This document shows, in pieces, positions 1,618 through 5,028 of a DNA stretch of 5,028 bases. The notes below the pieces were generated by a model. It did not search any database. It was not told the origin of the DNA and saw nothing but the letters and a program-made list of their open reading frames with translations. Position numbers and translations under genes: made by a program. Source of the DNA: a virus (Duplodnaviria; Heunggongvirae; Uroviricota; Caudoviricetes); IMG/VR virus record IMGVR_UViG_2690315922_000020. One strand, written 5' to 3'. Position 1 is the stretch's first letter. Each line of letters opens with the position of its first letter.

Positions 1618-2700
1618 ATGCTTCGCCACTTAACAGGACTCAGATTTATAGCTGCATTAATGGTTTATTTATGCCATTTAAATACAGACTATTTTGGTGT
1701 TTTTGTAAAAGAAATGTTTTCCCAGGGATTTATTGGCGTTTCCTTTTTCTTTATTTTATCTGGCTTCATTCTTTCATATTCATATGAAGACAAGCTAAAA
1801 AATGAAGTAACAAGTAAAAGACAGTTTATTCTTTTAAGATTGGCAAGAATTGTTCCAATGCATCTATTATTAGCCATGCCATTTATTTTACTAACCATTC
1901 ACTTAAAGAACTTTGATTTTTCAAAAACCTTAACAAATATTTTATTAATGCAAAGTTGGATACCAAAGGAGGATTACTACTTCTCATTAAATGGTGTATC
2001 ATGGTCTTTGTCTGATGAGCTGTTTTTTTATTTAATGTTTATTCCGTTGATTTATACATCAATTACAAAGAAAGTAATCACTGCAATATCAATTATAACT
2101 CTACTATTAACTATATATTTTTTAAAAATTATACAAACAGAAGAACTTAATCACTGGTTATATTATATATTCCCAGTAAGCCGCTTGGTAGAATTTATTT
2201 GCGGCATGATTATTTACGCTTGCTGGAAAAACAGCCGACAGCCGACAGCCGACAGCCGACAGCCGACAGCCGACAGCCGACAGCCGACAGCCGACAGCCG
2301 ACAGCCGACAGCCGACAGCCTTTTGTTTTTAATTTCACTATTACCTCTGCTAATAGCTATATATTATAGCAACAACATAAATAATAGTCTACGTTATTCG
2401 TTATATTATTTACTCCCCATGGTAATATTCTTTACTTCATGCATCTATCTAAGAAATGGAGTCATTCATACTATCCTCAGTTCAAAAACCCTAGAGCTAT
2501 TAGGGAAATCATCATTTATTTTTTATTTAATTCATCAACCCATTATATTATTTTGCTTTAAAATCTTTGGACATAACCCCGGACCACTCTATTTAATAGC
2601 GCTCCTTGTTATAATAACCATAGTCTCAATCATACTTTATAAATTAGTTGAGGAGCCTTTAGAGCTGATGCTAAGAAAACGAATTTTAGCAGTAAAATAA
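1618..2700 (+). CDS. Integral-membrane acyltransferase, family 3 (Oac/OafA-like O-antigen/LPS O-acetyltransferase type), 360 aa
   Basis: ATG at 1618 with AAGAGG (1606-1611) at 6-nt spacing; the track's upstream start at 1588 is a TTG with no RBS. Polytopic hydrophobic protein with family hallmarks: N-terminal R-x10-H in the first helix (LRFIAALMVYLCH), FFFILSGF, RLARIVP, and a C-terminal SSFIFYLIHQP motif. Very AT-rich, unlike the flanking tail genes. Contains the in-frame heptanucleotide tract listed separately. Stop TAA at 2698-2700, followed by a hairpin terminator. Confidence 0.85.
   Translation: MLRHLTGLRFIAALMVYLCHLNTDYFGVFVKEMFSQGFIGVSFFFILSGFILSYSYEDKLKNEVTSKRQFILLRLARIVPMHLLLAMPFILLTIHLKNFDFSKTLTNILLMQSWIPKEDYYFSLNGVSWSLSDELFFYLMFIPLIYTSITKKVITAISIITLLLTIYFLKIIQTEELNHWLYYIFPVSRLVEFICGMIIYACWKNSRQPTADSRQPTADSRQPTADSRQPTADSLLFLISLLPLLIAIYYSNNINNSLRYSLYYLLPMVIFFTSCIYLRNGVIHTILSSKTLELLGKSSFIFYLIHQPIILFCFKIFGHNPGPLYLIALLVIITIVSIILYKLVEEPLELMLRKRILAVK
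2231..2320 (+). repeat. Heptanucleotide simple-sequence repeat (ACAGCCG) x 12 plus a 6-nt partial unit, inside the acyltransferase CDS
   Basis: Read directly: 90 bp of perfect 7-nt periodicity with no degenerate units. GC-rich tract inside an AT-rich gene, flanked by A5 (2227-2231) and T4 (2321-2324). Encodes N-(SRQPTAD)4-S between two hydrophobic segments. Confidence 0.95.
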
Positions 2701-2703
2701 ATA

Positions 2704-2725
2704 AAACCGCGCTATTGCGCGGTTT
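2704..2725. terminator. Bidirectional rho-independent-type terminator between the convergent acyltransferase and tail operon
   Basis: Stem AAACCGCGC (2704-2712) / GCGCGGTTT (2717-2725) with loop TATT; T-rich tails on both strands (plus: TTTTATCTT; minus: TTTTATTTATTT). Overlaps the 3' end of the small minus-strand ORF. Confidence 0.6.
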
Positions 2726-2891
2726 TATCTTCAGGCTTGATGAATTTTTTACCGTCATATGACCAGCCAATACCAACATCTCCAACACATTTAACTATAT
2801 CCGCTTTTTCTGGCTTAAACTCTGACTTACCATCCCATACAACAAGATTTGTAACGACACCATTTTGTACGACTGCATAAATATCGCTCAT
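2712..2891 (-). CDS. Small protein (59 aa from ATG 2891; 64 aa if GTG 2906) translationally coupled to the tail fibre; candidate fibre chaperone/accessory protein
   Basis: The ATG at 2891-2889 overlaps the tail-fibre TAA (2893-2891) as TAATG. A GGGAG lies about 9 nt upstream. The track's start at 2906 is a GTG inside the fibre's last codons. Stop TAG at 2714-2712. Translation: [59 protein letters not shown]. Much shorter than canonical Tfa/U/G-type assembly proteins (about 170-200 aa). Confidence 0.5.
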   Translation of the reverse strand: MSDIYAVVQNGVVTNLVVWDGKSEFKPEKADIVKCVGDVGIGWSYDGKKFIKPEDKTAQ

Positions 2892-3991
2892 TACTGATAC
2901 TCCCACACAAGAATATATCCCTGATTTCCATTATTTCCTGTCGCTGGGCCTGATGACGCCTTATTGTATTTACCTGTCCCGCCAATACCGTATGTCCCAA
3001 GCATAGTAGTGGTTATACTTTCAACGCCAATCGCCTGATCATCACCAAGTCCAAGTGCCCCACATAAATTTGATCGTGAAACTGAATGGAACAGAATCCC
3101 TTGCCCTGTAGGAATTGGTGCTTCTGTTGCACTTCCCCCTGAAAATGGAGGTACCTGCTGAACTTGAGTTGATCCCCTTCCTCCCGGGCATACAAGCAAA
3201 TCACCAAAGCTTGTATTCCCGCCGTCACCTCCAGAGCCTCCTGGTCCTGTTCCTGCTACACCACCGCTTCCAATAGTTACTTGCACGGATTCAGGTATAG
3301 ACTGATAAAAAAATGCTTTAGCATATGCCCCGTTGGAACCGGCAGCACTTACACCACAGTTATTTGAGGCTGTTGCTGATAAATTGCCACTGGCACCACC
3401 ACCGCCAACGGCTTCCACTATAATTTTCGTTACACCAGGTGATTTGTGATAAGTCCCAGATGATCCAAATACCTGAACCCCCAAAAGCCTTCCTGTTCCA
3501 TCACCAAGTGTTAAATATTGTAGATTTTCCGATACGTTTTTTTTACTTAAAATTTCCCTACCATTTTGAGTCAGCGCTGTCATATCCATTGTTCCAGCAC
3601 CTGTAAAAAATGCCAGCCCATCCGGTATTCCTGTTAAGCTCGACAATGATGTCAGATTATCATTTTTATCCTGTTTATCATTCAGAATGTCTGTCATTCC
3701 CAGGTTTTCGAGAGCCGTTTGCACAGTGCCATCCGATTTGATATCGCCAAACGGATTCTTGCGGCTTAACAGCAGCGCACGAAGCGCGGTAAGAAGCTGA
3801 TCGTGCCGCCCCTTCTCCAGGCTGGCACCGGATGCCTCCACCACGCTGCAGAGTTCTTCCTGCAACATGTCAAAGTAGTCATCATCCAGATCGGTGGCAG
3901 GCGTGCCGGTCTGGGGGTTACCACGGGTAAAACCGTTCTTACCCGCGCCGAACTTATCCTTCTGCGCGGTTTTCGTGTCTATACGATGCAT
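2891..3991 (-). CDS. Phage tail fibre protein, 366 aa, with a conserved N-terminal attachment region and a glycine-rich C-terminal putative receptor-binding domain
   Basis: ATG at 3991-3989 with GGAG about 8 nt upstream, 3 nt after the stop of the DUF2313 gene. The N-terminal about 80 aa ([47 protein letters not shown]...) resembles the conserved N-terminus of prophage tail fibres as I recall it. The C-terminal half is rich in G/S/T/N ([44 protein letters not shown]). Its position after the baseplate-J and DUF2313 genes matches the Mu/e14-type order. Confidence 0.85.
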
Positions 3992-3994
3992 GGA

Positions 3995-4579
3995 TTACTC
4001 CGGATATTTAAAAATTACGTAGGTATGCGAAGGGCAGAGTTTGTTAAGCACACACTCGACAACGGTGTCGCCCCAGATACGCAGTGCGGAATCACAGGGA
4101 TCGCCACATGTCATCCAGGTGGTGTTGGTGGCGGCTGGCATGTTGACCTGCCAGTAATACCGCCATTCCGGCGCATTCACCGCGTCAGTACAGGCAGATG
4201 AGCAGGTGAACGTGCTTTTATCGTATCGCGTGATGGTGGCGTCTGGTCTGCCCAGGGCAGCAAGCTGTGCAAGGTAAAAATCCTCATTAATGCCGCCCGC
4301 CAGATTAATCTTCGCATCCAGCCGTTGCTGACGCTGGCGAAGGGTCTGTGTCCCTGTAGGAATACATTCATCCGGCAGGCCGCACAGACGCTCCCAGCGG
4401 TTTATCAGTTCAGTGGTGGTGCGCGGATCCAGCTCCCGCATCAGGGCATCCGCACGCTGATGAACGCGGGTTAATGACGGTGCCGCACCGGCAATCGCCG
4501 GATCGCTGGCTGACCACGCCGGACCGGGGGGCAACAGTGCCGACAACAGACGGATGTAATCATCGTTTGTCACGTCCAT
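3995..4579 (-). CDS. Phage tail protein, DUF2313 / YmfQ / Mu gp48-like, 194 aa
   Basis: Motifs [43 protein letters not shown] and C-terminal [10 protein letters not shown] match my recollection of the YmfQ/gp48 family. The ATG at 4579-4577 overlaps the upstream baseplate-J stop by 10 nt (ATGGACGTGA); its own stop TAA (3997-3995) is 3 nt from the fibre start. Confidence 0.85.
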
Positions 4580-5028
4580 GAAATCGTCCCCAGTACCGCC
4601 AGTTCATTTTTTGCAATGGAGATATTGTCTGCCGGTGCAAGCAACTGATGGCTGTATTCCCCGTTCGCACCGGAAATCGCTTCACTGATACGCGACACCT
4701 TCAGTTCTCCCTGCGGATAACCATCACGCAGCAGGAACGAACGCAACTCGGCGGTGATGGCAGCCCGTATTTCTGGTGTATCCGGCGTCACACGGATATG
4801 AAAATCCACCGTATGCGCCACCGGCCTGAACACATACAAATCAGAGCCTGCCACCGGGGCCAGTGGCCCGATATGTTGTCTTGCCGCCATTTCCGTTGAT
4901 TCTTCCGGAATGGGATTAATCAGGTCACTGCTGGCAATCATCACACTGTTGTGGATCACAAAATCAGGACACCCGTGTAGCCTCTTTCCATTGATTTTCA
5001 TATTCACAGGGTGATAGCCCATTATTGT
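4570..5028 (-). CDS. Baseplate J-like protein, C-terminal portion (gene continues beyond the window's right edge)
   Basis: The reading frame is open to the window edge (no stop in the 6 nt above the track's Met at 5022), and its position immediately 5' of the DUF2313 gene matches a JayE/Mu gp47-type baseplate protein. The C-terminal sequence (...[22 protein letters not shown]...[11 protein letters not shown]) fits that family by recollection. Stop TGA at 4572-4570. Confidence 0.75.

Follow-up and report, generated by a model that had tools for sequence, protein, structure and literature searches.

The small gene and its fibre

The window analysed here, the whole stretch of 5,028 nucleotides in the virus record IMGVR_UViG_2690315922_000020 (Caudoviricetes), is the right end of the tail module of a Mu-like/e14-like Escherichia coli prophage. 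The subject of this work is a small open reading frame (ORF) that directly follows the tail fibre gene and is co-transcribed with it, with a TAATG overlap and a Shine-Dalgarno sequence at the junction and a terminator behind. The features of the junction and of the fibre gene are as follows.

2712-2891, minus strand: small gene, 59 amino acids; stand-alone homologue of the fibre-binding N-terminal domain of tail-fibre assembly (Tfa) proteins
2889-2893, minus strand: TAATG, the fibre stop TAA overlapping the ATG of the small gene; translational coupling, as read from the sequence
2900-2904, minus strand: GGGAG Shine-Dalgarno, 8 nucleotides 5' of the ATG, within the last fibre codons
2699-2730, minus strand: terminator hairpin that closes the tail operon, with the TAG of the small gene in its loop
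2891-3991, minus strand: tail fibre gene, 366 amino acids, PHROG tail-fibre families; its distal part is the proposed client
2918-3454, minus strand: glycine-rich distal fibre module, residues 180-358; predicted binding site of the small protein

The small ORF stops with the TAG at 2714-2712 and has two possible starts, a GTG at 2906 that would give 64 amino acids and an ATG at 2891 that gives 59. By its sequence context the ATG is the true start, given that homologues begin 1-5 residues ahead of a conserved YA motif, that the RefSeq product WP_024244096.1 is the 59-residue form, and that the GGGAG lies 8 nucleotides upstream (ATATTCTTGTGTGGGAGTATCAGTA-ATG). The 64-residue reading from the GTG is unsupported, as homologue starts, RefSeq call and Shine-Dalgarno all favour the ATG. 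The fibre gene ends in ...TAT CAG TAA, and its stop codon shares two bases with the ATG of the small ORF (TAATG, 2893-2889). The terminator-like hairpin has a 14-pair stem with 6 G-C pairs followed by a T-run, and the terminator scan found 1 such site against 0.2 expected from shuffles. It probably acts bidirectionally, serving also the convergent acyltransferase gene on the plus strand, which ends at 2700. The original prediction, made from the letters of this DNA alone, had described an ORF of 59-64 amino acids whose ATG overlaps the fibre stop, and had called it the only ORF between that stop and the terminator. Coordinates and pentamer were confirmed from the sequence, the hairpin is present, and an ORF scan of the window found no other plausible ORF in the interval. 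The 59-residue protein has a computed mass of 6.5 kDa and a computed isoelectric point of 5.1; a signal peptide and a transmembrane segment were looked for in it, and neither was found.

The 59-residue form and a 68-residue E. coli form diverge from codon 54, where homology between the prophage variants stops, and the acyltransferase insertion starts at the same point, after codon 53. The last codons of the small gene were thus rewritten by the insertion of this moron. Given that the forms differ only after codon 53, the tail of the small protein is dispensable and its core comprises residues 1-53.

The N-terminus of the fibre is StfP/Mu S-like, which is the part for baseplate attachment, and matches the Mu fibre S weakly (5yvq_A/8ju3). 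Residues 180-358 match the Pfam family Gly_rich_2 (PF21722; E 1.3e-7, 32.3 bits against a curated cut-off of 24.3), and glycine makes up 22.5% of the last 200 residues.

Family, domain architecture and fold

The small protein is identical to RefSeq WP_024244096.1, a 'hypothetical protein', and is a full-length member of PHROG 14370, a family of unknown function (E 5.8e-28, residues 1-59 against profile positions 1-63 of 63). An exhaustive HMMER search of 1.84 billion representative proteins recovered 362 homologous clusters at E<=1e-3, with clusters defined at 50% identity. The family consensus is YAxVxNGxVxNxxxWDGxxxWxPxxG...IGWxYDGxxFxxP, and Y5, A6, V13, N15, W19, D20, G21 and G42 are nearly invariant. 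For a 53-codon core compared with diverged enterobacterial relatives (dS 0.13-1.18), the ratio of non-synonymous to synonymous divergence (dN/dS) is 0.19-0.27, which indicates purifying selection on the core. The full-length PHROG match, the 362 clusters and this ratio together place the ORF beyond chance, and it reads as a real conserved gene, neither noise nor a decayed gene.

The domain often occurs as the first part of a longer protein. Among the best 150 of the 362 clusters, 88 proteins have 50-80 amino acids and stand alone, 34 have 111-145 and five have 157-198, and in the longer homologues the match always lies at residues ~1-55. Homologues of 127-137 amino acids carry the Pfam domain Caudo_TAP (PF02413) after the ~55-residue module (E 1e-11 to 2e-32), and those of 175-198 amino acids carry DUF4376 in the same place. 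Residues 1-55 of the small protein align to residues 1-55 of the PF02413-positive proteins P0019 (E 1.8e-11, 57% identity), P0022 and P0023, and P0019 runs on into a classical lambda-Tfa-like C-terminal ending. A profile search likewise returns 'hypothetical' small proteins together with proteins of 129-133 amino acids annotated by NCBI as 'tail fiber assembly protein'; the sources are E. coli, Enterobacter and Yersinia. Because it shares its N-terminus with Caudo_TAP proteins, the small protein corresponds to the N-terminal module of a Tfa subclass, here separately encoded. The small protein itself has no PF02413 match at E<=1, and it ends 6 residues past the N-domain, which leaves no room for a Caudo_TAP region.

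These results bear out several points of the original prediction. It had not recognised the sequence, and the PHROG and RefSeq entries record no function. It had named lack of conservation in related prophages as a sign against the gene, and the ORF is conserved by cluster count, full-length PHROG match and dN/dS. The profile search that it proposed against assembly families uncovered the shared N-module, with PF02413 itself unmatched, and the canonical assembly protein of 170-200 amino acids that it missed behind the fibre is indeed absent, by Pfam match and by available space.

Other searches of the small protein gave little. Pfam DUF5874 stays below threshold (17.5 bits against a cut-off of 27.1) and matches residues 33-53 alone, and scans against NCBIfam and PADLOC gave no match. 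No hit at E<=1 was obtained by tblastn with the small protein and the family consensus against 50,697 cultured-phage records, a search that probably has low sensitivity with a query of ~56-59 residues. Two giant proteins, P0027 (3241 amino acids) and P0159 (2728 amino acids), were rejected as members, as the match was to a short repeated ILVWDGVADFKP-like motif and not to the domain. Proteins of 96-155 amino acids that follow fibres with the motif FTSSGTYTP in L129, L166, L118/L124/L139, L140 and L199 are missed by the hidden Markov model (HMM) of the N-domain; by eye, their N-termini look like divergent versions of the family motif, for example MKTYARIDGGRVVEIIEP...VYDGHTFSEYVPP. The true extent of the domain family probably exceeds the 362 clusters found.

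Stand-alone proteins make up about 60% of the domain-family clusters and occur across the Proteobacteria and in many metagenomic viral contigs. They account for 92 of 146 family representatives and are interleaved with extended forms on the domain tree, where 35 changes between the two states compare with 43.6±2.6 under shuffled labels; a tree of 55 residues is too noisy for counting gains and losses of the C-domain. At the level of loci, 99 with the domain were gathered via a tight family alignment and reduced to 43 non-redundant ones (<80% identity), of which 29 are stand-alone (54-71 amino acids, stops verified) and 14 extended. The stand-alone lineages are found in Alpha-, Beta- and Gammaproteobacteria.

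The close two-domain homologues raise the question of decay, namely that the small ORF is a non-functional 5' leftover from a Caudo_TAP-type Tfa gene that lost its 3' half, perhaps through the acyltransferase moron insertion. This would suit the 57% identity to P0019, the divergence of the window form from codon 54 exactly at the insertion junction, and singleton non-synonymous changes in some prophage copies. It is contradicted by the 29 of 43 lineages and 92 of 146 interleaved representatives that are stand-alone, by the 68-residue form, which lacks the moron and is stand-alone all the same, and by the low dN/dS with Shine-Dalgarno and coupling kept. A tblastn search with the C-terminal halves of 15 extended homologues found no remnant behind the small gene, be it in the window, in L001-L003 or in the other stand-alone loci; all its matches are separate, intact Tfa genes of other cassettes. 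The decayed-remnant explanation is therefore largely refuted, and is very unlikely. The original prediction had listed a degraded assembly gene as its second option and a full-length relative exposing the ORF as a remnant as its refutation. Fused relatives do exist, and the stand-alone lineages, the missing downstream Caudo_TAP sequence and the purifying selection tell against that option.

The fold gives a further view of the N-domain. A single-sequence AlphaFold2 (AF2) model was unusable (pLDDT 56), and a model built with a 77-sequence multiple sequence alignment was used instead (pLDDT 83, pTM 0.62). It is all-β: three strands cover 3-9, 12-19 and 31-35, and two more are short. It contains no helix, and residues 54-59 after the β-domain have low confidence. 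In a Foldseek search of 350,542 PDB chains, the model ranked first with 7ypx_a (TMq 0.66, probability 1.00, root-mean-square deviation 3.0 Å, 24% identity, E 0.033), a 162-residue chain of the cyanophage Pam3 fibre entry whose length agrees with the chaperone gp25. The phage Mu fibre chaperone, 5yvq_B, comes second (TMq 0.50), and no further PDB chain rose above probability 0.15. In a viral model library the best fold matches are uncharacterised phage proteins of 59-150 amino acids, along with a small number annotated as tail (fibre) assembly chaperones. When the PDB was searched by sequence, neither the protein nor the family profile gave a meaningful match; hits to 'Cake' designer-propeller entries were insignificant per repeat.

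The fibre side of the pair was reached by sequence. A profile of 38 upstream fibres matches Pam3 gp24 (7ypx_A) over residues 62-284 (E 4.3e-18), which is the TNF-like plus glycine-rich part. With the fold of the small protein close to gp25 and the fibre profile close to gp24, both members correspond to the Pam3 pair. The partner-fibre profile also matches PDB 9d93_Qa, 'Tail wing brush, gp33' (E 1.7e-7), which places the same glycine-rich module in a structurally characterised appendage of another phage.

In Pam3, the fibre gp24 is bound at its TNF-like/glycine-rich junction by a β-sandwich made up of gp25 residues 1-55, and the chaperone trimerises through a helical bundle of its residues 64-162 (PDB 7YPX; Wei et al. 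2022, PMC9608196). Chaperone and fibre make a 3:3 complex. Fibre gp24 becomes soluble on co-expression with gp25, and gp25 is not found in virions (PMC9608196). The gp25 gene, like the small gene, directly follows a fibre with a helical N-terminus and a TNF-like/glycine-rich tip in a Mu-like minimal baseplate module. Both proteins have an all-β domain of ~55 residues, and the partner fibres are homologous in sequence. The two differ in that gp25 has 162 amino acids with a C-terminal four-helix trimeric bundle, whereas the small protein stops after the β-domain, and they have no detectable similarity at the sequence level. Pam3 gp24 resembles S16 gp38 (PMC9608196), and the T-even gp38 adhesins (S16 gp38, PDB 6F45) share with the window fibre a polyglycine-rich receptor-binding module at the tip. 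In the T-even phages that module is a separate protein capping gp37, whereas in the window it is part of the fibre; the small protein, unlike gp38, is not glycine-rich.

Mu offers the second comparison. The N-domain of TfaMu (PDB 5YVQ chain B) is the second-best fold match, and the window resembles Mu in its weakly Mu S-like fibre N-terminus and its Mu-like baseplate genes. TfaMu binds the distal tip of the fibre (North et al. 2019, as summarised in PMC9608196), and according to that summary its N-domain is larger, having additional helices that take part in binding the fibre. The Mu fibre tip, unlike that of the window fibre, is not glycine-rich.

In the manner of Mu Tfa, the small protein could be a permanent accessory of the fibre tip that stays on the mature fibre and contributes to or modulates receptor binding. 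The chaperones of Mu and Ur-lambda do stay in mature virions and aid host-receptor recognition (PMC9608196; PMC8174754), TfaMu stands second in the fold search, and tip and small gene are swapped together as one host-range cassette, as described below. The closest structural analogue, Pam3 gp25, argues for a different fate, as it covers the receptor-binding loops and is not in virions. Hypervariability is usual in parts that contact receptors, and the good conservation of the small protein does not fit this. A permanent accessory is unlikely on this evidence, and it overlaps with the chaperone explanation in that both need tip binding.

Linkage to glycine-rich tips and the assembly-protein slot

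The family is tied to one kind of fibre tip. In all 38 of the 38 non-redundant loci with a co-oriented upstream gene, the last 200 residues of that gene contain at least 20% glycine (medians 0.28 and 0.29, against a background median of 0.085), a level reached by 1.4% of 416 background ORF segments. The upstream gene has a Gly_rich_2 match (E<=1e-3) at 29 of the 38. Where the upstream gene is present, the junction is a 1-nucleotide or 4-nucleotide overlap at 15 of 25 stand-alone and 11 of 13 fused loci. The reverse test used fibres chosen by a DNA motif scan, solely by DNA that encodes FTSSGTYTP, 105 of which could be evaluated. The domain follows immediately after 52 of these glycine-rich fibres, as a stand-alone protein in 24, an extended one in 27 and a cut one in 1. 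After the others, the next gene is a divergent-looking version (by eye), a second glycine-rich fibre or an unrelated gene. By these counts, the domain is specific for glycine-rich tips, though it is not their only possible neighbour.

The small gene also occupies the position of classical assembly genes. Caudo_TAP genes (lambda Tfa, Mu U/U', P2 G, E. coli TfaE/TfaP-type) likewise lie after the fibre and are often start/stop-coupled to it, and a short subset of 127-137 amino acids has an N-terminal module homologous to the small protein, up to 57% identical. Unlike Caudo_TAP proteins, the small protein entirely lacks the conserved C-terminal region that defines them and has a third of their usual 170-200 amino acids. 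Classical Tfa proteins differ further in having another N-domain (Caudo_TAP_N) and tips that are seemingly not glycine-rich.

In Hin/Gin-type invertible cassettes of enterobacterial prophages the small gene stands in the U/U' position of Caudo_TAP systems. In the E. coli locus L007 (3801-6700), a Pin-type invertase adjoins a segment between inverted repeats at 4416-4431 and 6285-6300. One orientation of the segment gives a glycine-rich tip with a 71-residue family member, and the opposite orientation gives a different tip with a classical Tfa of 196 amino acids (Caudo_TAP_N plus Caudo_TAP). The repeats have a AAACCAAGGTTT core, which we take to resemble the Hin/Gin hix/gix core. In L037 (1835-4582), the tip module of the window itself is joined to a different fibre N-terminus and followed by a 68-residue member (64% identical) in the expressed orientation, and the opposite side holds a silent 112-residue tip fragment, a 140-residue Caudo_TAP protein and the invertase. 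In both L007 and L037 the small gene and the convergent Tfa gene overlap at their 3' ends by about 23-29 nucleotides. In Kluyvera (L004/L005, 3804-6365), a glycine-rich ORF (34% Gly) precedes the small gene, which has a Pin-type invertase directly beside it. L004 and L037 showed no inverted repeat of 16 nucleotides or longer.

Another backbone is found in the alphaproteobacterium Labrys (L006), where a Mu-like baseplate operon ends with gp48, a 414-residue Gly_rich_2 fibre and a 54-residue member whose start overlaps the fibre stop. Taken together, the layouts of L007, L037, L004/L005 and L006 indicate that the small gene takes the Tfa slot whenever the tip is glycine-rich. In Labrys (L006, 5233-7214), a second Gly_rich_2 protein of 536 amino acids comes right after the small gene, and a 123-residue protein without a family match overlaps the end of its gene. 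This 123-residue protein may be a different kind of helper for glycine-rich tips.

The same linkage bears on whether the small protein is a tail protein at all. It lies at the end of an operon beside moron-type cargo (the acyltransferase and ORFs of unknown function), and databases assign it no function, so that it could be an unrelated regulator, lysogenic-conversion or anti-defence factor that merely sits there. The strict linkage to glycine-rich tips, held in unrelated phage backbones and in invertible cassettes, speaks against this, as do the fold and the homology, which indicate Tfa N-domains, and the results of the PADLOC, signal peptide and transmembrane searches. An unrelated protein at this place is extremely improbable.

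Proposed role and genomic setting

The analysis establishes homology, fold and synteny for the small gene, as well as its co-inheritance with glycine-rich tips and the purifying selection on it. On that basis the 59-residue protein is probably a minimal tail-fibre assembly chaperone that consists of the N-domain alone, a reading that draws on sequence, a predicted model and the Pam3 analogy; that it is a tip-binding helper of the Tfa type is likewise likely. For its binding, chaperone activity and stoichiometry, we infer by analogy with Pam3 and Mu the following course. The protein would be the small β-sandwich 'gripper' domain alone, which in two-domain Tfa proteins recognises the distal TNF-like/glycine-rich fibre module, and it would be produced in step with the fibre via the TAATG coupling and its own Shine-Dalgarno. 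One copy per fibre subunit would bind laterally to the nascent TNF-like/glycine-rich module, with contacts probably through β2 and the W-D-G turn, since these are the most conserved parts and β2 is a main contact in Pam3. The repetitive glycine loops would be shielded and kept ordered until the trimer has formed. Because the small protein has no helical C-terminal trimerising domain, trimerisation would be left to the N-terminal helical region of the fibre itself, which is plausible given that the N-terminal helical bundle of the Pam3 fibre supplies most of the trimer interface. Afterwards the protein may be released, as in Pam3, or retained, as in Mu.

Several points weigh against this account. 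The N-domain alone might be insufficient or act differently, as current models give trimerisation, the key assembly step, to the C-domain that is absent here. Sequence profiles fail to reach Pam3 gp25 or TfaMu, so that the link is made at the fold level only, with a Foldseek E of 0.033 and 24% identity for a 59-residue model, a size at which TM-scores discriminate less. About half of the motif-selected glycine-rich fibres have no detectable member next to them, and the domain is therefore not obligatory for such tips. Singleton substitutions occur at conserved positions in a few near-identical prophage copies (for example D20G, L029/L030) and would fit a relaxation of constraint in some cryptic prophages. 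The tape-measure gene of this prophage carries a frameshift in strain KSC1031, and the fibre module may be out of use there at present.

The first option of the original prediction, a minimal chaperone for the glycine-rich fibre tip, thus has strong comparative and structural support in homology, fold, partner fibres and tip linkage, and its chaperone activity is argued by analogy. Its third option, a new accessory factor, fits in part, since modules of this kind are known but no annotation covers the stand-alone form. The prediction as a whole is thereby supported in part. That Tfa proteins have two domains is already known, and the stand-alone N-domain form is new. As a family tied to glycine-rich tips it is unannotated in PHROGs, Pfam, NCBIfam and RefSeq; the entries PHROG 14370 and WP_024244096.1 carry no recorded link to Tfa N-domains or glycine-rich tips, and a literature search of incomplete coverage found no description of it.

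Whether an engineered or swapped receptor-binding tip folds depends on its tail-fibre chaperone, and such chaperones are thereby a constraint on host-range engineering of phages and tailocins. In the current model, from TfaMu and Pam3 gp25, the key trimerising role falls to the conserved C-terminal domain. A large natural family with just the 55-residue tip-binding domain suggests that this supposedly 'essential' other half is dispensable, and makes the sufficiency of the N-domain directly testable. If the N-domain suffices, the smallest portable 'tip + helper' cassette for glycine-rich fibres would be defined, and a function would be at hand for many small 'hypothetical' ORFs (PHROG 14370 and relatives). 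More tentatively, and with slightly less in favour than against, the stand-alone proteins could be a widespread unannotated class of fibre chaperones, monomeric clamps that fold glycine-rich tips without a C-domain. The C-domain would then be an optional add-on, repeatedly gained or lost, and not the mechanistic core, and a tip with a 55-residue clamp would be the minimal portable host-range cassette.

Upstream of the fibre, the window contains two baseplate genes.

3995-4579, minus strand: YmfQ/Mu gp48-like baseplate protein (Pfam Phage_Mu_Gp48, E 1e-26; RefSeq 'YmfQ family protein')
4570-5022, minus strand: C-terminal part of a baseplate J/gp47-like protein (Pfam Baseplate_J, E 1.8e-5; RefSeq), cut by the window end

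Given its YmfQ/Mu gp48-like neighbour, the fibre belongs to the end of a Mu-like baseplate operon. The best genome match is strain KSC1031, with 99.9% identity across 2600-4100 of the window. The small gene is present in just 12 of 5,426 complete E. coli genomes, whereas the N-terminal part of the fibre and ymfQ occur together in about 1,800 genomes; the distal fibre and the small gene are thus a rare exchangeable cassette on a common backbone. The fibre ORF is uninterrupted over 366 codons in the window and in L001. RefSeq/PGAP annotates only its first 99 codons, as 'protein StfP, partial pseudogene'; the glycine-rich rest has either no annotation or its own 'hypothetical protein' entry. This split annotation is an artefact that hides the fibre type in E. 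coli genomes, and the finding flags it as a systematic mis-annotation of the partner fibre in RefSeq. In related loci the fibre lies at 9292-10392 (L001) and 6292-7392 (L003).

The copy of the prophage in KSC1031 may be defective, judging from the tape-measure frameshift. At ~1276-1491 of the window, on the minus strand, the KSC1031 RefSeq record has a frameshifted partial remnant of an S24-family peptidase (LexA/CI/UmuD-like). The plus-strand cargo includes an ORF at 1-573 for a protein of 190 amino acids (PHROG 4350, unknown function, E 3e-14), which has no match in Pfam, NCBIfam or PADLOC, and an ORF at 664-837 for one of 57 amino acids, which has no match in scans of Pfam and PADLOC.

The convergent acyltransferase gene (1618-2700, plus strand) contains at 2232-2320 a perfect (CAGCCGA)x12 tract followed by CAGCC, which encodes repeated SRQPTAD. 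The related viral contig L022 has 15 copies, and most alleles (L001, L003, L023-L032) have a degenerate, presumably stable tract of 3. As both 12 and 15 copies keep the frame and a change by one copy would shift it, the gene is a candidate for a slipped-strand phase-variable surface/O-antigen acyltransferase carried as prophage cargo.

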